Positions 2,938 to 63,704 of a stretch of DNA of 64,000 nucleotides are shown here, piece after piece; the first letter of the stretch is position 1, and the number at the start of each line of letters is the position of its first letter. Origin of the DNA: Somniosus microcephalus (lineage: Eukaryota); NCBI GenBank assembly GCA_052327205.1, contig CM126203.1, forward strand, positions 22,072,001 to 22,136,000, given 5' to 3'. The notes under the pieces are model-generated. The model was not told the DNA's origin, did not search any database, and was given only the letters and a program-made list of their open reading frames with translations. A program made the position numbers and the translations under genes.

Positions 2938-3213
2938 TAAAGAACAGGACTAGTTGTGAGGGAACAGCTCAGGGGTAGTATTAGGATCAGTTAGTTGCCA
3001 GAATATCAGATTTTCCCTCAAAAATGCCAGTGTGGCTTCACTTTCCAATCTGAGCTGCTCCAGATGGGTAGATACCAAGCAGATAAAGGAAGGGCAGACG
3101 GGAGGGAAAATTGGAACACAGAAGCTTGAGTGGTTCTTTCCAGAAAGCTGGCTGGGGGAAGGGTATTTGTAGGATTCTGCGACCCGGATATTATGGTCTG
3201 ACTCTCCCTTGAG

Positions 3214-3792
3214 TACATAGATACATAGAAGATAGGAGCAGGAGTAGGCCATTCAGCCCCTTGAGCCTGCTCCGCCATTCAACGAGATCATGGCTGATCA
3301 TCCAAATTCAGTACCCGGTCCCTGCTTTCTCCCCATATCCCTTTGGCCTTAAGAAATATATCCAACTCCTTCTTGAATATATTTAATGAATTGGCCTCCA
3401 CTACCTTCTGTGGTAGAGAATTCCACAGGTTCACCACTCTCTGGGTGAAGAAATTCCTCATTTCTGTCCTAAATGGCTTACCCCTTATCCTTAGACTGTG
3501 ACCCCTGGTTCTGGACTCCCCGACCATCGGGAACATCCTTCCTGCATCTAGTCTGTCTAGTCTTGTTAGAATATTATAAGTTTTGATGAGACCCCATCTC
3601 ATTCTTCTAAACTCCAGCGAGTACAAGCCCAATCGACCCAATCTCTCCTCATACATCATTCCTGCCATCCCAGGTATCAGCCTGGTGAATCTTTGCTGCA
3701 CTCCCTCCATGGCAAGAACATCCTTCCTCAGATAAGGTGACCAAAACTGCACACAATACTCAAGGTGTGGTCTCACCAAGGCCCAGTACAGC
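3214..3792 (-). mobile_element. CR1 LINE 3' fragment
   Basis: LVRPHLEYCVQFWSP...NFFTQRVVNLWNSLP, CR1 3' UTR and short-repeat tail. Confidence 0.95.
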
Positions 3793-4224
3793 AGCCAATC
3801 AAACCTGCATGCTCCCACTCCATGCAGCGAAACATTTAGTGATTCAGTGCTCAGGGCTCCCATGATGCTCTTACTCTCCTTCAATTCATATGAACTGAAA
3901 CATCCAAAGTCAGCCCTTTGTTTGAATCAATCATCAGAAGCCACCAACCAGATGCCTGCTTGTTACCTGGCCCCATCTGATGTCCTCCTCGGTCAGGAAT
4001 TAGATTGGAAATTCTGCCAACAATAATGTCTTGCGTTTATATAATGCCTTGCGTTTATATAATGCCTTTAATGTAGAACTTTACAGCGGCGTAATCAGAT
4101 AAAAATAGCCATTTAAAAAATACATCTTACATTTGCACCCACTTCCTGTCAACATTTTCATTATAACCTCTCATGTTGGCATTTATAATGGGAACGTCTC
4201 TATGTAAACTCATCACACTCCAAT

Positions 4225-5258
4225 AGGAAGCAGAGGGTAATGGTTGATGGGTGTTTTTGTGACTGGAAGGCTGTTTCCAGTGGGGTTCTGCGGGGCTCAG
4301 TACTAGGTCCCTTGCTTTTTGTGGTATATATCAACGATCTAGACTTGAATATTAGGGGGTATGATTAAGAAGTTTGCAGATGATACTAAAATCGGCTGTG
4401 TGGTTGATACTGAAGAAGGAAGCTGTAGACTGCAGGAAGATATCAATAAATTGGTCAGGTGGGCAGAACAGTGGCAAATGGAATTCAATCCGGAGAAGTG
4501 TGAGGTAATGCATTTGGGGAGGGCTAACAAGGAAAGGGAATACACATTAAATGGTAGGACACCGAGTAGTGTAGAGGAACAAAGGGACTTTGGAGTGCAT
4601 GTCCACAGATCCCTGAAGGTAGCAGGCCAGGTAGAGAAGGTGGTTAAGAAGGCTTGCCTTTATTAGCCGTGGCATAGAATACAAGAGCAGGGGGGTTATG
4701 CTTCAACTGTATAAAACACTAGTTAGGCCTTAGTTAGAGTACTGCGTGCAGTTCTGGTCACCACATTACAGGGAAGATGTGATTGAATTAGAGAGGGTAC
4801 AGAGGAGATTTACAAGGATGTTGCCGGGAGTAGAGAATCTTAGCTATGAGGAAAGACTGGATAGGCTGGGTTTGTTTTCCCTGGAATAGAGGAGGCTGAG
4901 GGGAGACCTTACTGAGGTGTATAAAATTATGAGGGGCCTAGATAAAGTGGCTATTTCCCTTAGCAGGGGGCACCGATTTAAAGTAATTGGTGGAAGGATT
5001 AGAGGGGATTTGAGGGGAAATTTCTTCACCCAGAGGGTTGGGGGGGTCTGGAACTCACTGCCTGAAAGGGTGGTAGAGGCAGAAACCCTAACCACATTTA
5101 AAAAGTACTTGGATGTGCACTTGGGATGCTGTAACCTGCAGGGCTACGGACCAAGAGCTGGGAAGTGGGATTAGGCTGGATAGCTCTTTGTTGGCCGGCA
5201 CGGACACGGATGGGCCAAAATGGCCTCCTTCCATGCTGTAACTCTCAATGATTCTATA
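4225..5258 (+). mobile_element. CR1 LINE 3' fragment (RT to tail), disrupted
   Basis: KFADDTK, EFNPEKCEVMH, FFTQRV..WNSLP; ATTCTAT-type tail. Confidence 0.95.
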
Positions 5259-6170
5259 ATAACATCTTCCTGCCAGTAGAGGCACTGCAGCACCACCACT
5301 GGACACGGTGTGATTACAGTGTGACAAAGTTTACATAGGCAGTTTCCATTGTAAATGTGGGCATAGGAATTTATAATGAAGATACAAAAATAAAGACACA
5401 CGTATGGTTCTAAAATTGGGAATGAATTATGCCTGCAGGCGCTGGTCCAATTATCCCTCACCCTCTGACCCTGCTTCAGCTGGAGACTACACGGGTCTTG
5501 TTGACCCATGTGCAATACCACAGATCGGCTAGTGAAATGAAATAGTGGATTAAAATAAACAAACAGTCAGCTGGCCTGTAAGTATGAAGAATTAACCGCA
5601 GCAGACTGCCAACGTACTGGCATCCAACCAGTGACATTTCTGGGGCTACCAGAACTGCATGTGCTCAGTGTCGCGATCCAAGAGGAGAACTGTACGGGTA
5701 TTCATTTAAAAACACAGGTGAATACTTTATTTTAAATTAACCATTGCAAACCTAACTGGAGTCTTGATGCAATATGCTGTTTCCAGTTAATTTTGCATAC
5801 CTGGCCACTACTGGAGTCTGAGCGAGCGGACCTGCGGGAGGAACGGAGTCGGAGACTGGGGATAAAGGCAGCGCGGAGCAGAGACCTGGGAGTCTGAGTG
5901 AGCAGACTACCTGCGAGGGAGACAGTTGGCAAGCGACATAACGAAGGAGTGACGTCAGAATTCAAAGGTGTCGCTGGCACAAGGGAATGGAGAGGCGAGT
6001 ATAGGATGAGTATTTGTGGTAAGGTTTTTTTGTTCTGTTTTCAGTATATTTCTGCTAAGTAGTTCATAGCCTATCTAATAGAGGGAGGTGCTGATTGGTA
6101 CGTAGCTGTTGAGTGTTTCTTGTTCAGTTTATTTCTGCTAAATGACCTCCATAGTCTGGTAAATAGAGGC

Positions 6171-7133
6171 ATGGCAGGGCAGCTCAGTCCCGTGATTGGC
6201 ACATCCTGTGCCATGTGGGATATCCTGGACGCTTCTTGCGGCCTGGACGACCACGTGTGCAGGAAGTGTCGCCAACTGCAGCATCTCGAACTCCGAGTTT
6301 CGGAGCTTGAGCGGCAGCTGGAGTCACTACAGTGCATCCATGAGGCCGAGAACTACTTGGAAAGCACGTTTCTAGAAGTGGTCACCCCGAAGCCTCAGAA
6401 TGTGCAGGCAGAGAGGGAATGGGTGACCACCAGACAGAGGAGGAGGACCAGGCAGGTAGGGCAGGAATCCCCAGAGTGCATCTCGCTCGCTAACCAGTTC
6501 ACAGTTCTGGAAACTGGTGGGGGTGATGGCTCCTCTGGGGAGAGCAGCCAGAGCCAAGGCACCATGGGTGGCTCAGCTGTACAGGGGGAAGGAGGGGGGG
6601 GGGGGGGAGGAAGAAGAGTGGAAGAGCAATAGTGGTAGGGGATTCATTGGTTAGGGGAACAGAGAGGCGTTTCTGTGGACGCAGACGTGACTCCAGGAAT
6701 GGTATGTTGCCTCCCTGGTGCCAGGGTCAAGGATGTCACTGAAAAGCTGTAGGCCACTCTGAGGGGGGAGGGTGAACAGCCAGAGGTTGTTGTCCATATC
6801 GATACCAACGACATAGGCAGAAAGAGGGATGAGGTCCTGCAGGCAGACTATAGGGAGCTAGGAAAGAGATTAAAAAGCAGGACCTCAAAAGATAGTATCT
6901 CCAGATTACTCTCGGTGCCATGTACTAATGAATACAGGAATAGGAGGATAGAACAGATGAATGCGTGGCTGGAGAGACAGTGCAGGAGGCAGGGCTTTAG
7001 ATTCCTGAGGCATTGGGACCATTTCTGGGGACGGTGGGACCTGTACAAGCCGTACGGGTTACATCTCAACAGAGCTGGGACCAATATTCTTACAGGGAGG
7101 TTTGCTAGTGCTGTTGGGGAGGGTTTCAACTAG
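6171..7133 (+). pseudogene. CR1 ORF1 (zinc finger/leucine zipper plus esterase-like), frameshifted
   Basis: ORF pieces 6120-6632 and 6915-7133 (GLHLNRAG); intervening GDS.. and VVVHI.TND motifs in other frames. Confidence 0.85.
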
Positions 7134-56579: not shown

Positions 56580-57306
56580 CTGAAATGGGAAGACGACACT
56601 GAAATGCTGAAACTCTAGTACAATAACAACGGCCACTGGTCAGCAATCAAGATTTTACCCATGCAGTGGCCTTAACAACTCTAGTAAAACTACTAACCCG
56701 TTAGCTAAATGTTTCATATAGAGGGTGTAAAAAAGTCCTTTTGCTAAACACTCATTTTCCCTGGACGGCCAGGAACTTGCCAGGACAGTGAGCTTGTCAG
56801 TACTCCAGAAATGGAACTGAAAACATCCTGAGCATTTCAAATTGCGACAACAATCAGAGGTACACTTTTACTGGTCTACCGCATGCTCAAAACATAAGAA
56901 TTCTACTTAGCCTTATGACAGATACTCTAAATAATTGGAACGTTTTTGGCCAATTTGAACATCTTGTGCTGGCCTGAGCTACAGGTTTAAAATTTGACAA
57001 ACTTGTGTTGACCTCACTCTCTCTCTCTCTAATGATTTCACAACCCTGGCATTATTTTACATCCCAACCTCCTCTTAGTCTTTCCACGGCCCTGGCCAAT
57101 GCTTCACTTTAAGTTGGCTGTTGCATTTTTATGAATGCCCCAGTTTTCCACCCCTCGCTGTTGGGACAGCATCTGAGAGAGATTACCCAGGAGGATCAAA
57201 GCTGAGTGATCTAAAGCCAAGGGGGGCAAAATTCGGTATCGCCCCCGTTTGGGGCGCAATTATCGGCCGGGCGCAAAGTTTAGTGCCTGGCACTAATTAT
57301 CGCCTC

Positions 57307-57560
57307 TGTAGTGTATGTATCCGTCTACCTTTAAGAAAACCATTGTATGTAACCGTTCACCTTTAAGAGAACTATTTTAGGTGTGGCACTACTTTGTTGG
57401 CTTCTGTATACTGTAATACCGACGGTGACCACACCGGTATATAAGTGCTGTGTCAGGATTTATTTGGCAGATTCGCCCTGACCTTCGAATAGTAAAGTCC
57501 TGTTTTAAGTTACTCTGGTAGTCTGTGTATTAATTAACTAAACAACTCACAGACTTTACA
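57307..57560 (+). repeat. 5' LTR
   Basis: TGTAG...TTACA; TATATAA at 57438; AGTAAA at 57491. Confidence 0.97.
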
Positions 57561-57561
57561 G

Positions 57562-57571
57562 TGGCGACGAG
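57562..57571 (+). other. Primer-binding site TGGCGACGAG (complementary to the 3' end of tRNA-Ser GCU)
   Basis: 1 nt after the 5' LTR; tRNA identity from recall. Confidence 0.75.
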
Positions 57572-58126
57572 TCCGATCGTACCCTGCGGCAACAATACTT
57601 CCGAAGCAGTTAACGAGCGTCGAGAAGAGGCAACCGCCCTCGTCATTCTGCTGGGAGAAAACTCGAGGCTGCAGAACTAGAAAGGAGGAAGAATTCAGAG
57701 ACAAAGACTTCCATCAGCAACAGGCACTGACTGTCCCTTCTGCCACGGTGAGGAGTGAGCCGATCAGCATGAGAAGCAAGCCGGCCACGGTGACTGTGAG
57801 TAAGGGAAAAGTAAAAAAGTAAAAAGAATAACCGGAGGATAAGGGCGGTGCACATGACCACGGTCGAGGGGGAAAGGAGCCGGACAGAAGTCGGGCCCAG
57901 AGGCGCTGAGACTGGGGCAGCGTGGAGCAAGGAAGCCGTGGTACAGACAGGCTGGGGACGCAATGGCGTCGTGAGACAGCTAGACCGTGACCGGCGAAAA
58001 AGGCCGGGCAGCGACCGAAGCCACGAAGCGCTGCGACTGGGAGCGTAGGCGCGGGAAGATATAAAAACTCAGCCACAGCCGGGGAGGGAAGCACCGGACT
58101 GCGAGAGGGCTGGGAGGCGCGATTGG

Positions 58127-58338
58127 GAGCCGAGCGAGCGGGAGAGGCAGAGCCGACCAAGGGAGACTGAGTGAGAGCCAGTCCAGCGGCTGAAACTGTT
58201 CGCCGTCAACGGGGTGTACCCAGCGCCGGTAGAGCCGAGCGAGCGGGAGAGAGACAGAGCCCGAGCAAGGGGAACTGAGCGAGAGCCAGCCCAGCGGCTG
58301 AAACTGTTCGCCGTCAACGGGGTGTACCCAGCGCCGGT
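58127..58338 (+). repeat. ~105-bp tandem duplication in the element's leader
   Basis: Both units end CCAGCGGCTGAAACTGTTCGCCGTCAACGGGGTGTACCCAGCGCCGGT. Confidence 0.9.
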
Positions 58339-58625
58339 TGCCCTGCCGAGAAAAGGGAAAGCACTGAAGCCGACGCGCAGGCTGTGAACCTGAAAGCCAG
58401 CGGCCGTCGCCCGTGGGGAAAGTGTACCCCTCCCGCCAGGGGAAGAAACGCGGGAAGCCGCCATTAGGCGGAGAAGAAGACAGAAGCGGGGAACCGCCAT
58501 TGAAGTGGGCGGGGAGAGAAGATAAGCGCGGGAAACCGCCATTTTCGCGGGAACCGCCATCTTGGAAAAAAAAATAAAAGAAAATTTAAAGAAATAATTC
58601 GTGGTGTTATCAGGAAGAGAGGAAG

Positions 58626-59795
58626 ATGCCTAAGCGTGGTAACATCAACGATTTTAATTCCGAGGTAGAAGACTGGGCCACGTATGTGGAACGCATTGAG
58701 ATCTATTGTGAGGCCAATAAAATAGAAGATGACGACAAAGCTATAACCTTGCTAAACTCGATGGGCGCGAAGACATACGGGCTCTTGAAGCATCTACTAG
58801 CACCAGCTAAACCGGCGGATCAGACTTTCGATGATATTGTGACTGTTCTGAAGGATCACTTGAACCCCACACCGTTGATGTTGGCGGAACGATTCAAATT
58901 CTATGCGAGAACGCAAAGGAAAGACAAAAGCAACGCAGAATACTTGGTCGAACTGCGTAGACTAGCGAAACACTGCCAGTTTGGAGGGAATCTGACAGAG
59001 GCATTGCGAGACAAGTTCGTGTGCAGGTTGTCAAAGGAAGGAACGCAAAAGCGACTACTCGAAGAGAACGACCTTACACTTGACAGGGCTGTCCTTATTG
59101 CAGCATCGCACGAAGCCGCAGCGAAGGGAACTGCGGAAATGCAGCTAAAGGCAGCGGCACTCAGTGTGGATCAAATTACCTCGAGTACAACAAAATGCTA
59201 TCGTTGTGAGAAGACAACACACGACCAGAACCAATGCTGGTTTAAGAACCAGGAATGTAGGAAATGTGGCAAACTGGGTCACATAGCTAAGGTATGCCGG
59301 TCAGGGAAGAAGACCAACAACCAAAGGAAGCCATCACAGGAAAAGTACAACAAGGTACACAAGGTGGCTGAGAAGAGTTCAGACGAACAGAATTCGGACT
59401 CAGACCCAAACGGCCAGGAGCTGGGCAGTCTGAGAATTCACAATGTGAGTAAGGAAGCTGACCTACAAACTATCTGGGTCATGCTAAAAATAGCTGGAGT
59501 CCAAGTGAAAATGGAGTTGGACACTGGATCAGCTCTATCAGTCATAAATCGAAGGGATTACCACCGGCTATTCTCACATATACCCTTAAGAGATACCAAG
59601 TTCGTATTGCAGACATACACGGGGCATAAAGTATACCCCATGGGGAAGATAAGAGTCAAGGTGAGAGATGGGGGTAAAGAACACCCAAGAATGAACTTAT
59701 ACGTACTACCTGAGGGAGGACCACCACTTCTGGGACGGGAGTGGATCAAGAAAATAGACATGGAATGGCACTATCTAAAAGCCATAACGAGTTAG
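58626..59795 (+). CDS. gag: Gypsy Gag-protease (389 aa)
   Basis: WATYVERI, AERFKFY.R.Q, LRDKFV; two CCHC knuckles (CYRCEKTTHDQNQC, CRKCGKLGHIAKVC); protease LDTGSALSVI and LLGREWI. Confidence 0.93.
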   Translation: MPKRGNINDFNSEVEDWATYVERIEIYCEANKIEDDDKAITLLNSMGAKTYGLLKHLLAPAKPADQTFDDIVTVLKDHLNPTPLMLAERFKFYARTQRKDKSNAEYLVELRRLAKHCQFGGNLTEALRDKFVCRLSKEGTQKRLLEENDLTLDRAVLIAASHEAAAKGTAEMQLKAAALSVDQITSSTTKCYRCEKTTHDQNQCWFKNQECRKCGKLGHIAKVCRSGKKTNNQRKPSQEKYNKVHKVAEKSSDEQNSDSDPNGQELGSLRIHNVSKEADLQTIWVMLKIAGVQVKMELDTGSALSVINRRDYHRLFSHIPLRDTKFVLQTYTGHKVYPMGKIRVKVRDGGKEHPRMNLYVLPEGGPPLLGREWIKKIDMEWHYLKAITS

Positions 59796-60029
59796 GACTC
59801 GGTGCAGACAATCAGCTCAGATTCTGAAACGGATGACGATAAGACCAACCCAAATATGAAAGACAAGGCTAAAATGGACTTGCCGACTAAGGTTGGAAGA
59901 ACGAAGGCATGCATAAAGGCTTATGCTCCAGAGAAGAACAAAGTTTCAGAACAGAACTCCACCGAACAACGACAACATAGTTTGACAGAGAATTCTGAGT
60001 CTGTTCAGTTTACGGACATATCCATGACT

Positions 60030-60162
60030 GACGAACTCGGACTCAACTTTATTTCAAATTACGACAGCAAGTAGAACAAGTGAGTTACCGTCTCGAACAA
60101 GAGATGAAAACAATGAAAAAGTTCTATGACACCGAATGGGAGAATCTGGAAAGACAACAGAG
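60030..60162 (+). pseudogene. Captured STK10/SLK coiled-coil (PKK) fragment
   Basis: Frame absent from the ORF track: RTQLYFKLRQQVEQVSYRLEQEMKTMKKFYDTEWENLERQQ, vs STK10 [23 protein letters not shown] (recalled). Confidence 0.75.
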
Positions 60163-61536
60163 CAGCTAGCTCAAGCAGAGAGCAACCATAGAGCCATTGT
60201 GACCAATTACCGATCACATCTCCCTTATGCTGTTCAGGAGTTAGAATATTTGCAGGAAGGAGCAAATGAAGAGGAATCTTCAGGAAGCCAGGATTTTATT
60301 CCCGTTCTTCTCTACGACTCCTTACAAGCAGAGTTTGAGAAGTTGAAGGAACAGTATGAACAGGCCCAGGCTACAATCCTGGAGGGGATTAACTCGGCAA
60401 CCTCCGAAAAGCTAGTTTCAGTAGAAGCATATGAGCAACTGAAGGTTGAACATGAGCAAGAAGTCCAAAGGCTGCAGGAAATTCTTGATGAGCTCAAGGC
60501 CAAGACAGACTCATCGGTAGAAGTTCCATCCATAGATGAGAAATTAGAGGTGAAAGACATGGCAGAACATGAAAGACAAGATGTCCAAGAACTCATAAAA
60601 ATATTGAAGGAAACCCAAGACAAATATGAGGCGGCAATGACTGAGGTTCAACAACTTGAAGAACAGATTCAACTGGGAATCCTTTCAGTGGAAGAAAAGG
60701 AAACTGTAAGAAACACAGAGACTGTAAGAATGGCCCCTGAACATGAGCTAGAGAGCATCAAGGCGCAACTTCTCCGAGCGCTGAAAGCCAAAGTACAAGA
60801 GGAAAAGAAGGTGAAAACATTGGAGGAAAAGGTGGATGAAATGGAGAAGACTCTGATCCACAGTGTTCCCGTGGAAGAGTTAACGGTCAGCCAACTCCTT
60901 CATATGCTGAGGGACAAGACTCTGCAATGGGAACAATCTGAACACGAGCTTCAATCTTCAAAGGGAAGGAGTTCAGAGCTCTCAAAAGTTATGGAAATAG
61001 CTGAGGTTGCAACACAGATTTTACTGGGATGCCAAAAGTATGCTGAATCACGTCTATGTGAACAACAGAATGTTGAAACAGCTGCTCCAGTAGAAGGATT
61101 GAATAGCCTGATCAATCAATCCCCGATGGAAGGGGAAGTATTGAAATCACAAATGAGGTCATTAGTGAAGGATTTGCAGGAAACCCAGGAAGAGCGGGAT
61201 GAATATGAACGCATGAAGAAGTCTCTTCAGGAAAGATGTCTAGGGAGGGAACAACAGTCGGCTAACGTCCAGTTGGGTAAGGAAGAAGTAGCAGGCCCTC
61301 TCGCTAGACTAGTTCAGGACGACACCGAATATTACCATGACCTGTTGAGTGACACGGAATATTACGAGGACTTGGTCTGCCCAGCTTGTGATGAAAACTC
61401 CCAAAGTGCAGTAATCAGGATGAAGCACTTAAAGTCTAAGGAACATAGAGAGATGGTGGTGCTACAGCTGGCAGCTGATAAGGGAACCCCGAGAGTCTCC
61501 AAGAAGCAGAAAAGAAAAAGACGAAGCAGAAGGTGA
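60136..61536 (+). CDS. 466-aa chimeric coiled-coil cargo ORF: ANKRD24-like (60163-60879), OPTN-like (60874 to about 61300), DNAJC21-like zinc finger and basic tail (61321-61533)
   Basis: YRSHLPYAVQ and FIPVLLYDSLQAEF (ANKRD24); EELTVSQLL and MKKSLQERC (OPTN); DLVCPACD..HLKSKEHREMV..SKKQK (DNAJC21); assignments from recall. Confidence 0.8.
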   Translation: MGESGKTTEQLAQAESNHRAIVTNYRSHLPYAVQELEYLQEGANEEESSGSQDFIPVLLYDSLQAEFEKLKEQYEQAQATILEGINSATSEKLVSVEAYEQLKVEHEQEVQRLQEILDELKAKTDSSVEVPSIDEKLEVKDMAEHERQDVQELIKILKETQDKYEAAMTEVQQLEEQIQLGILSVEEKETVRNTETVRMAPEHELESIKAQLLRALKAKVQEEKKVKTLEEKVDEMEKTLIHSVPVEELTVSQLLHMLRDKTLQWEQSEHELQSSKGRSSELSKVMEIAEVATQILLGCQKYAESRLCEQQNVETAAPVEGLNSLINQSPMEGEVLKSQMRSLVKDLQETQEERDEYERMKKSLQERCLGREQQSANVQLGKEEVAGPLARLVQDDTEYYHDLLSDTEYYEDLVCPACDENSQSAVIRMKHLKSKEHREMVVLQLAADKGTPRVSKKQKRKRRSRR

Positions 61537-61914
61537 TAACCATCTAAATCATTATCACTTCTACCAGATCATGTACGTGGGCCCTACGAAGGGAGCCAAA
61601 TCAGTTGGCAAGTAGGAAAAATTACCAAGGCAGTCCAGCTGTTTGTAAAAGTCAGCACTGCTGGTTCAGCAGGACGGAAGTTCAAGCTGTTAAGTCAAGG
61701 GAAAGACTATTGGATGAGTCACGCTAGCAATGTGAACCGGCTACACCACAGAGATGTTGTTCGGACCGAATCAAGACCAGAGACTGAATCTGTGAACTGT
61801 TCCCGCAGAGACTGAATCTGTAAACTGTTTCCCGCATAGATTATACCTGTGAATTGTTTTACATGAAGTTGAATATATGTTATGTTTAATGGGGGACTAA
61901 GTATGTTGTAAGCT

Positions 61915-61926
61915 AAAAAGGGAGGA
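61915..61926 (+). other. Polypurine tract
   Basis: AAAAAGGGAGGA immediately before the 3' LTR. Confidence 0.9.
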
Positions 61927-61927
61927 T

Positions 61928-62181
61928 TGTAGTGTATGTATCCGTCTACCTTTAAGAAAACCATTGTATGTAACCGTTCACCTTTAAGAGAACTATTTTA
62001 GGTGTGGCACTACTTTGTTGGCTTCTGTATACTGTAATACCGACGGTGACCACACCGGTATATAAGTGCTGTGTCAGGATTTATTTGGCAGATTCGCCCT
62101 GACCTTCGAATAGTAAAGTCCTGTTTTAAGTTACTCTGGTAGTTTGTGTATTAGTTAACTAAACAACTCACAGACTTTACA
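61928..62181 (+). repeat. 3' LTR
   Basis: 252/254 identical to the 5' LTR. Confidence 0.97.
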
Positions 62182-63704
62182 GCCTCCGACTGCAAACTTG
62201 GCTTCTATTGCCCCTGGAGGTGATTGGAGCGCTAAATCAGGTGCTACACACCTCTCTTAAGGTGCTAATGCCGAGGAGCGAGGCGCTACCTCAGAGCGTT
62301 GGCGAAACTCATGTGATGTCAGTCAGCAATGGAACACAGACACACTGGCGCCAGCCAGTTCTTAAAGGGGAGGGTCGATCTTGTTCTCCATCCACACCCT
62401 GCTCATTGCAGCCTTGAATCTCGGCCTGGAGAGACCTGTAAATCAAATCTGCTGGAAAGAACAATGGAGAGGCCGAGGGAAAGAGCTCAGAGTGCAGCCC
62501 CCATAGTCTCTTCTAAATCGATGCAAGGAAGGTCAAATCAAAATGAACCTGCAAAGTGCTGCTCAGTACTCAAAGCTCCTTCACACCGCATTGAATCTCC
62601 CCAGAAGTCTCTCTCTCTCAGAATGTGTGGTGCAAAAATGTCGCCGACAAAAAAAGGCAGGAAGCGGTCGCCTTTAAATAGCGCTCCCCCAGTCCCTTCC
62701 CAACTGCAAAATGTTCCCCTCAACTTGTCGTTGCTAGCGGCAGGCGGAAAGGCAGGGGGCGCCACTCAGTATCCGGTCCGGGGCGCTACTGGGGTGTTGC
62801 ACGCTCGACTGATGTCACAATCTGCAGGCGCAGGAGATCGTGGTGGTACTGTTTAGTGCCGCCGCAAAATGTCTGGTCAATTTCGCGAGCGGCGCAAACA
62901 TCGCCGCGCCCGGGCGCTAGTTGCTTTGTAACCCATTAGCGCCCTCTTAGGGTGCTAATGGGAGGCGCAAAGCAACCAAATTTTTCCCCCCAAGGTCTTT
63001 TGACCCTGAGTCTAACACTCAACCGCTGAGTTACTCTACCTGGATTCTGTTTCACTCCTCAATACAAATAGCTATTCTGAGATCTGCAGTATGCAAAGGA
63101 AGATGAGCATGAAGTCCCCTGTTGCACCACTCTTTTGGTGCTGCTACACACCCAGTGAGGGCAGGTCTACTCATAAAACTTGCAAACTGTTCTTCATGGA
63201 GAAAGCTGGTTCCAATGTATGTAAAAACTAGGAGAATCTCTGCATTCTAGCTGTGCTTCTAAATGTATAAAGTTCTCAACTCATGCACAGAGAGTGATCA
63301 TAATATTCAATAAGCCTCACAGTGCAGAGAACTTTTCATCTTCTAGCTGTTGCAATCTCTTCCCAAAGAGAAAGTGGTAAGTTTTGTGCAAATACCATTG
63401 CAAAAATATTCATCTGTTTGTGTTGTAACTGTTTCAGAACTGCAGTAGCAGTTCCACATCAAAATATAAAGCATCACATGTGCCATCGGAGCATAGGAAT
63501 GAACAGGAGTGACATAAGAAAACTACTAGGCACTTGGTCTAAGCGTTAAACAAAGCTTTAATCAACTATTTTACAACATGGAGGTCTAGTTGTCCTTCAC
63601 TAGTTCCTGTTAAGAATGTCCTGCACAAGCTGGGCCCGTACCCGAGTATTTATACTCTCCCTGGACAGCGCCAGCCGCAGGCCGCTCAGATGATTCATGT
63701 CAAG

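Follow-up and report, generated by a model that had tools for sequence, protein, structure and literature searches.

The 64,000-nt window analysed here (Somniosus microcephalus, contig CM126203.1, positions 22,072,001 to 22,136,000) carries at 57307-62181 a long terminal repeat (LTR) retrotransposon in which gag and a protease are followed by coding sequence from several host genes. We read it, with a probability of about 0.82, as a broken copy of a large non-autonomous Gypsy family, whose pol core was replaced in frame by spliced host exons, two sets of them back-spliced and likely derived from circular RNAs (circRNAs), and which likely borrows reverse transcriptase (RT) and integrase. Its features, numbered like all plain positions below within the 64,000-nt window, are the following (nt, nucleotides; aa, amino acids; L213 is a pol-bearing copy):

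57302..57306, no strand: left target-site duplication GCCTC, 5 bp
57307..57560, +: 5' LTR, 254 bp, 97% identical to the LTR of L213
57562..57571, +: primer-binding site (PBS) TGGCGACGAG
57572..58625, +: leader containing a direct repeat of 78 nt, with 97-99% identity to L213 in the aligned parts
58626..59795, +: gag (two CCHC knuckles) and aspartyl protease, terminated by a stop not found in other copies
59789..60167, +: 5' part of the STK10 cargo, ~aa 400-478 fused with aa 616-663, at 81-88% identity to host exons
60160..60237, +: ANKRD24-like, the last part of one exon followed, across a splice joint, by the entire penultimate exon (60172-60237, 95.5% identical to the host)
60237..60238, +: back-splice, penultimate-exon donor to large-exon acceptor, 11.5 kb upstream in the host ANKRD24-like gene
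60238..60880, +: ANKRD24-like large exon, first 643 nt, 97.4% to host
60874..61290, +: OPTN cargo, ~aa 231-384, without introns
61300..61518, +: DNAJC21 zinc-finger piece, the reading frame stopping at 61536
61519..61718, +: 3' part of the STK10 cargo, ~aa 322-389, with which the circular lap of the founder ends, not included in the long frame of subfamily A
61719..61797, +: remnant of the parent's integrase C-terminal tail, bounds approximate
61915..61925, +: polypurine tract (PPT)
61928..62181, +: 3' LTR
62182..62186, no strand: right target-site duplication

Structure and cargo of the window element

The cis elements are complete, as the initial annotation had described: both LTRs are 254 bp long with TG..CA ends and differ by 2 mismatches, and the 5-bp GCCTC duplication, the PBS, which presumably matches the 3' end of tRNA-Ser(GCU), and the PPT were all found. 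The gag-protease it had reported was recovered as well, Pfam placing a zinc knuckle and an aspartyl protease within 58590-59792. No Pfam match to RT, RNase H or integrase was obtained in any of the five open reading frames (ORFs) of this copy that were scanned, and the interval from cargo to PPT has no env ORF. The RT/RNase H/integrase core is indeed missing, as claimed, but the integrase-tail remnant (~61719-61797) had been overlooked. The copy thus shows the features of a non-autonomous Ty3/Gypsy element (TG..CA LTRs, 4-6 bp target duplication, PBS, PPT, CCHC Gag and protease) and lacks the protease-RT-RNase H-integrase order of an autonomous one. Two weak Pfam rows, at 61540-61812 (E 0.09) and 57538-57819 (E 0.03), were discarded as chance, the first being STK10 in another frame. 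The element sits within a ~890-bp repeat (57220-62990) whose ends form short inverted repeats, GGGGGCAAAATT..AATTTTTCCCCC, and which is probably a DNA transposon of non-autonomous type; its empty site is seen in RNA reads.

Protein searches, which had been proposed together with the original assignment, gave distinct matches to STK10, an ANKRD24/ankycorbin-like protein, OPTN and DNAJC21, the best ones in the sharks Heptranchias and Pristiophorus, which marks the host as a shark. The four identities and their order were therefore right, but a second STK10 piece (61519-61718) had been missed. The description of the cargo as mostly coiled coil suits several pieces, but neither much of the STK10 piece nor an insert found in a sister family. 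Compared with host exons of the same genome, the cargo pieces are 79-97% identical at the DNA level, and introns are gone from the STK10, ANKRD24-like and OPTN cargo. The OPTN cargo consists of six collinear host exons, entered at a 9-nt microhomology, and in the ANKRD24-like cargo the C-terminal exon precedes the central one. Microsimilarity at the switch points amounts to 12 and 6 nt at STK10, 9 nt at the OPTN entry and 7 nt at the ANKRD24 exit. In the window copy the DNAJC21 finger gives a weak match (Pfam E 0.17), but in L064, a sister copy, it is clear, with 65% identity to P0142 across 60 aa and a zf-C2H2_jaz match in Pfam at E 1.2e-6. At one host OPTN exon end (G000:C17:85884780-85884795) a short run holds one extra A compared with the element copies, which would shift the frame with respect to other shark OPTN proteins and is possibly an assembly error.

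Damage private to the window copy comprises the stop at 59793-59795 and two breaks of the frame, close to 60040 and to 60160, so that the fused frame described initially fails here; it is kept, as a 984-codon frame (at least 983 codons) of Gag, protease and cargo, in 16 of 29 other copies, top-scoring matches that favour intact copies, the other 13 being without a full frame.

Subfamilies, back-splices and probable circular templates

Searching the genome with OPTN and STK10 retrieved sister subfamilies that can be arranged as a ladder. S0 (~3.85 kb) carries STK10 alone; B a shortened STK10 plus OPTN aa 131-431 or 131-387; C the B cargo plus the DNAJC21 finger; A, the window type (~4.9 kb), has ANKRD24 in place of the STK10-OPTN joint; and L207 is an A copy with one further insert (5.2 kb). 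Element length grows along the ladder toward the 5.1-5.6 kb of the parent. All subfamily joints seen are in frame except one near the 3' end of A, where the stop comes earlier by less than 300 nt. In a gag-protease tree of 51 rows (four pairs are the same copy fetched twice), S0 falls among pol-bearing copies, while C, late C and A are nested with starred support and the root is unsure; the long branch of L212 inside subfamily A was disregarded. Shared synonymous distances to the host decrease from STK10 (0.25) through OPTN (0.15) to ANKRD24 (0.06) in A, and the STK10 of S0 is at 0.02. On every rung LTR pairs are 97-100% identical, suggesting rapid, replication-driven change of the lineage over a time that was short on the genomic clock. 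This young ladder, together with an ANKRD24 piece still 97% identical to its host exon, speaks against the initial view when it is applied to all captures, namely that capture probably long predated the insertion. Some S0- and B-type copies (L063:3745-4221, L070, L216/L198) hold a further insert of ~155 codons behind the protease, with no Pfam or PDB match in L063, L070 and L216, which we take to be KMT2A/KMT2B around the taspase cleavage sites.

The S0 cargo corresponds to six exon pieces of the host STK10 gene (C8:167.19 Mb; 97.5-100% identity). It starts within the large exon, with the second part of it, passes through three more exons, returns to an upstream exon and closes with the first part of the large exon. 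The reversal falls at a back-splice between a donor, next to which the host has GT, and an acceptor lying 6.5 kb upstream behind a host AG (C8:167191933 to 167198433); this junction is present at 23 of 25 loci, and the lap is exactly 1,245 nt, a whole number of codons. One host STK10 intron within the circle (G000:C8:167193681) begins with GC instead of GT. The entry motif TATTGGATGAGG is common to STK10 and the protease-RT linker of the parent (6 of 8 parent copies, a variant in 2), and the exit GATGAG to STK10 and the start of the parent's integrase tail, as seen in L222. The motif is single in STK10 and occurs twice in the pol-bearing parent, and both entry and exit of S0 lie there. Since S0 enters and leaves at one STK10 site, a circle would yield one lap, while a linear template would leave nothing captured.

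A donor joined to an upstream acceptor recurs in two further cargos. In the window, the ANKRD24-like piece passes an ordinary splice joint and then a back-splice exact to the base at donor and acceptor. In L207, the extra insert (L207:3864-4352), placed within the ANKRD24 piece, consists of five exons of a gene on C3 (88-100% identity), with a back-splice whose donor meets an acceptor situated 45.5 kb upstream of it (G000:C3:347968011-348013503); its end and start are contiguous in a host exon, as in a second full lap with an internal deletion. The host exon was found by a short donor motif, which had 20 matches, 19 in an unrelated repeat and 1 in the exon; a longer motif tried first had no match. 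The insert had no Pfam or PDB match and gave only generic coiled-coil clusters in Atlas; the gene is presumably EVI5.

In the back-spliced cargo only exons within the circle are present and a poly(A) tail is absent. The joining of a downstream donor to an upstream acceptor makes a circRNA template likely, so that circular RNAs were likely captured three times, as judged from the junction sequences: in the STK10 founder, in the window ANKRD24 piece and in the L207 cargo. OPTN is collinear over its six exons, as either type of template could give. These structures support the initial proposal that host transcripts were captured one after another in reverse transcription, here by switches of template, but two of the four captures, given their back-splices, likely came from circles and not from mRNAs. 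A 2026 preprint reports the packaging of host circRNAs by retroviral Gag, which would make the capture of circles plausible.

Family size, mobilisation and selection

The window element belongs to a multicopy family, as had been suspected. In the own-genome cargo search all 40 scored matches were full-length with 99-100% identity, and a 21-mer across the ANKRD24 junction had 1,306 exact genome matches and a gag 20-mer 10,209, the reversed control giving 0 in both cases. Among 13 copies fetched whole, 12 had a 5-bp target duplication of their own, and the 11 LTR pairs of equal length differed by 0-5 mismatches. The first 30 gag matches on contig C1 ran into RT in 16 cases and into cargo in 14 (4 of these with ANKRD24), from which hand extrapolation gives roughly 3,000-6,500 cargo-bearing copies in the genome. 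Family members are often nested in related Gypsy elements (L007, L025/L026, L212, L213, L215). One subfamily-A copy (L084:6437-8471; G000:C13, ~62.867-62.869 Mb, minus strand) lies in an intron of the captured ANKRD24-like gene, antisense to it and within the span of the circle. Gag patches of higher divergence in the A copies L012, L014 and L030 suggest further recombination with other subfamilies.

Copy L210 encodes Gag, protease, RT, RNase H and integrase in a single frame, in the order that places the lineage in Ty3/Gypsy. The LTR, leader and gag start of the window copy are 95.6-99% identical to those of L213, the protease merely 79-80%. A mosaic retroelement requires both RNAs in the same particle; recombination between the window lineage and L213, hence co-packaging, supports mobilisation in trans, as initially supposed, by a pol-bearing relative sharing the LTR (97%) and the leader (97-99%). 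The family is thus likely mobilised by RT and integrase of co-packaged pol-bearing relatives. L088/L089 was considered as the partner and rejected as too distant.

Transcription was examined in two raw-read RNA runs chosen by species label, X8 and X9. In X8, where splice joints of the host STK10 gene served to confirm which way the library reads, 22,676 reads fell on the stretch, with an internal depth of 100-725 in sense and 10-67 on the other strand. The stop allele of the window copy at 59793 was lacking in all reads covering it (340 of 340 in X8, 346 of 346 in X9), and the RNA signal therefore comes from other copies.

The ratio of nonsynonymous to synonymous substitution rates (dN/dS) was estimated by comparing L002, a member of subfamily A, with copies of C, of B or of the parent. 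Without correction it was 0.10-0.34 for Gag, 0.17-0.32 for the protease and 0.43-0.57 for the STK10 and OPTN cargo; with a transition weight of 4 (98:50 observed) it became ~0.2 for Gag (0.55 once), 0.3-0.4 for the protease, 0.7-0.9 for STK10 and OPTN, the short piece of DNAJC21 reaching 1.1-1.6. Between an A and a C copy, gag-protease had 82 synonymous and 63 nonsynonymous differences and the cargo 45 and 104 (Fisher p 7e-6), with no stop among the 104 where ~6 were expected (p ~0.002). Changes private to single copies included 11 stops over all groups, with a nonsynonymous to synonymous ratio (pN/pS) of 0.4-1.3. Gag and protease are under purifying selection, and the cargo is near neutral yet frame-keeping. 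This suggests that the element needs its own Gag and a translated frame, not a particular cargo, which is likely, from these codon comparisons, an in-frame filler that must stay translatable; a special role for the chimeric protein sequence finds no support in a near-neutral cargo.

Competing explanations and known systems

The family could have arisen as follows. A short motif, which the parent has at two places, the linker between protease and RT and the tail of the integrase, and STK10 at one, would have allowed RT to jump to a co-packaged STK10 circle, to run one lap and to jump back, with loss of pol and gain of 1,245 nt. Microhomology switches would then have brought in OPTN, DNAJC21 and a portion of an ANKRD24 circle, the order being that suggested by tree and divergence; a sister copy would have gained one complete lap around a third circle. 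Gag and protease are conserved while the cargo drifts near neutrally, no stop or frameshift becoming fixed until near the 3' end; the element would thus depend on a Gag of its own and on translation that runs nearly up to the 3' LTR, for RNA stability, cis packaging or genome length. We further lean, with less confidence than for the reading given at the outset, towards seeing the LTR lineage as a serial circRNA trap: one microhomology would serve for both entry and exit, in-frame circles would be stop-free and circRNAs would thus be the preferred filler, the family would be a natural record, in thousands of copies, of the circRNAs of the shark germ line, and this would be the first worked-out mechanism of circRNA retrocopying.

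Several observations weigh against a circle-fed, trans-mobilised family of this kind. The 128 RNA reads (69 and 59) across the STK10 back-splice mostly carry element-type letters, and at a diagnostic site nearby the element letter is found in 134 of 140 X8 reads; the reads are therefore mostly element transcripts and a present-day host circle is not established by them. X9 shows little strand bias. The frame of the proposed partner L213 itself runs into a stop after 949 codons, and L213 may be the recipient of the recombination. A host locus of DNAJC21 was not found, the whole-protein search giving element copies only. The stop test compares two copies picked as open, top-scoring copies favouring intact ones, and the cargo dN/dS below 1 without transition correction leaves room for weak constraint at the protein level. 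A candidate host locus of DNAJC21 on C17 (two PF21884 exons) was set aside, the surrounding 55 kb containing no match to the cargo or to P0119.

The alternative with most in its favour, still doubtful, is a cargo working as protein, either as a coiled-coil dimerising module for protease activation or particle scaffolding, or, through OPTN, as a decoy against host defence. Several cargos are coiled coil, the uncorrected dN/dS is ~0.5 and the frame was preserved through every capture. Yet the transition-corrected ratios given above approach or exceed neutrality, cargo was repeatedly deleted and replaced, and A-rich coiled-coil codons can provide in-frame microhomology even if they have no function. 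In OPTN, the motif DSFVEI, which we take to be an LIR, is present in B and C and lost in A.

It is improbable that the non-collinear junctions arose from linear RNA, by trans-splicing with exon repetition, from a rearranged gene or through a chance RT jump within one mRNA. No circle was directly observed, 2-3 nt fit either side at each joint, and Dong et al. (PMC4897178) caution that structured linear RNAs can yield such junctions. However, three independent cargos break precisely at donor and acceptor, and each host exon is single in the fetched 55 kb (STK10), 28 kb (ANKRD24) and 200 kb (third gene). Moreover, two cargos have the same host entry and exit site, where a linear template would capture nothing.

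Even less credit can be given to the domestication of some copies by the host as new chimeric genes, similar to Bs1 of maize. Sense transcription and a protease-cargo joint open in all 340 X8 and 346 X9 reads would fit it, but the private changes include stops (pN/pS 0.4-1.3), 13 of the 29 top copies have already lost the full frame, and the fused protein was not found among 1.84 billion representatives, a cargo-only query giving 11 matches, all partial. An assembly artefact or one-off chimera is refuted by the 1,306 junction matches with distinct flanks and own target duplications, and by the presence of 0.52-0.73 of the sampled element words in five DNA runs with three organism labels.

We therefore retain the non-autonomous Gypsy family with likely circRNA-derived cargo, and compare it with known systems. 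The LTR-mediated retrocopies of metazoans (Tan et al. 2016, PMC5131818) share with it internal ORFs replaced by partial intronless host sequence, switch-point microsimilarity, multi-gene chimeras (one from four genes), sense co-transcription and secondary retroposition; correspondingly, intron loss (STK10, ANKRD24-like, OPTN), microsimilarity, sense co-transcription and further retroposition were all found here. In the passages considered those cases are low-copy, and 'circ' is absent from the text, whereas the shark family has thousands of copies, one Gag-protease frame, back-splices and all intermediates preserved. The circRNA-derived pseudogenes such as mouse circRFWD2 (Dong et al. 2016, PMC4897178) have in common with it the non-collinear junction, circle-only exons, absence of poly(A) and LTR association; a reversed exon junction at true splice sites, circle-only exons and no poly(A) characterise the shark cargo too. 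Of these there are 33 copies, and the mechanism is called 'mysterious', while the shark family offers a parent element, an entry and exit motif, a visible full lap, three captures in one lineage and a product that is coding and amplifying.

Maize Bs1 (PMC5131818, PMC7264820) is likewise an LTR retrotransposon with fragments of three unlinked host genes, but it is from a plant, is described as a new chimeric gene, and circular templates are unmentioned in the passages concerned. CrocERV29 (KIT ligand) and CrocERV31 (nectin3) are vertebrate LTR elements amplified with captured host RNA; according to the passages considered (PMC4299795) they are retroviruses with one whole gene each, six to nine copies and cargo under purifying selection, whereas the shark family carries fragments of many genes and near-neutral cargo. 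With no env ORF and a cargo dN/dS of 0.4-0.9, it does not resemble a transducing or endogenous retrovirus. In the literature, subscription journals and Repbase aside, we found no account of this family, nor of circRNAs being taken up repeatedly into the frame of Gag; Table 8 of Tan et al. 2016 and Table S1 of Dong et al. 2016 may hold closer cases.

The capture of genes by LTR elements and the pseudogenes made from circRNAs are each known on their own; here they are combined, with an unusually complete mechanistic record. The first descriptions of such pseudogenes did not settle how circRNAs are written back into the genome. A parent, a switch motif, a complete lap and three captures in one genome make the template-switch model directly testable. 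For the shark, gene-family counts, RNA-seq and circRNA calls for STK10, OPTN, ANKRD24 and DNAJC21 can be swamped by the elements. For the family, this is exon shuffling inside a selfish element of thousands of copies, with Gag conserved and the cargo free to drift.

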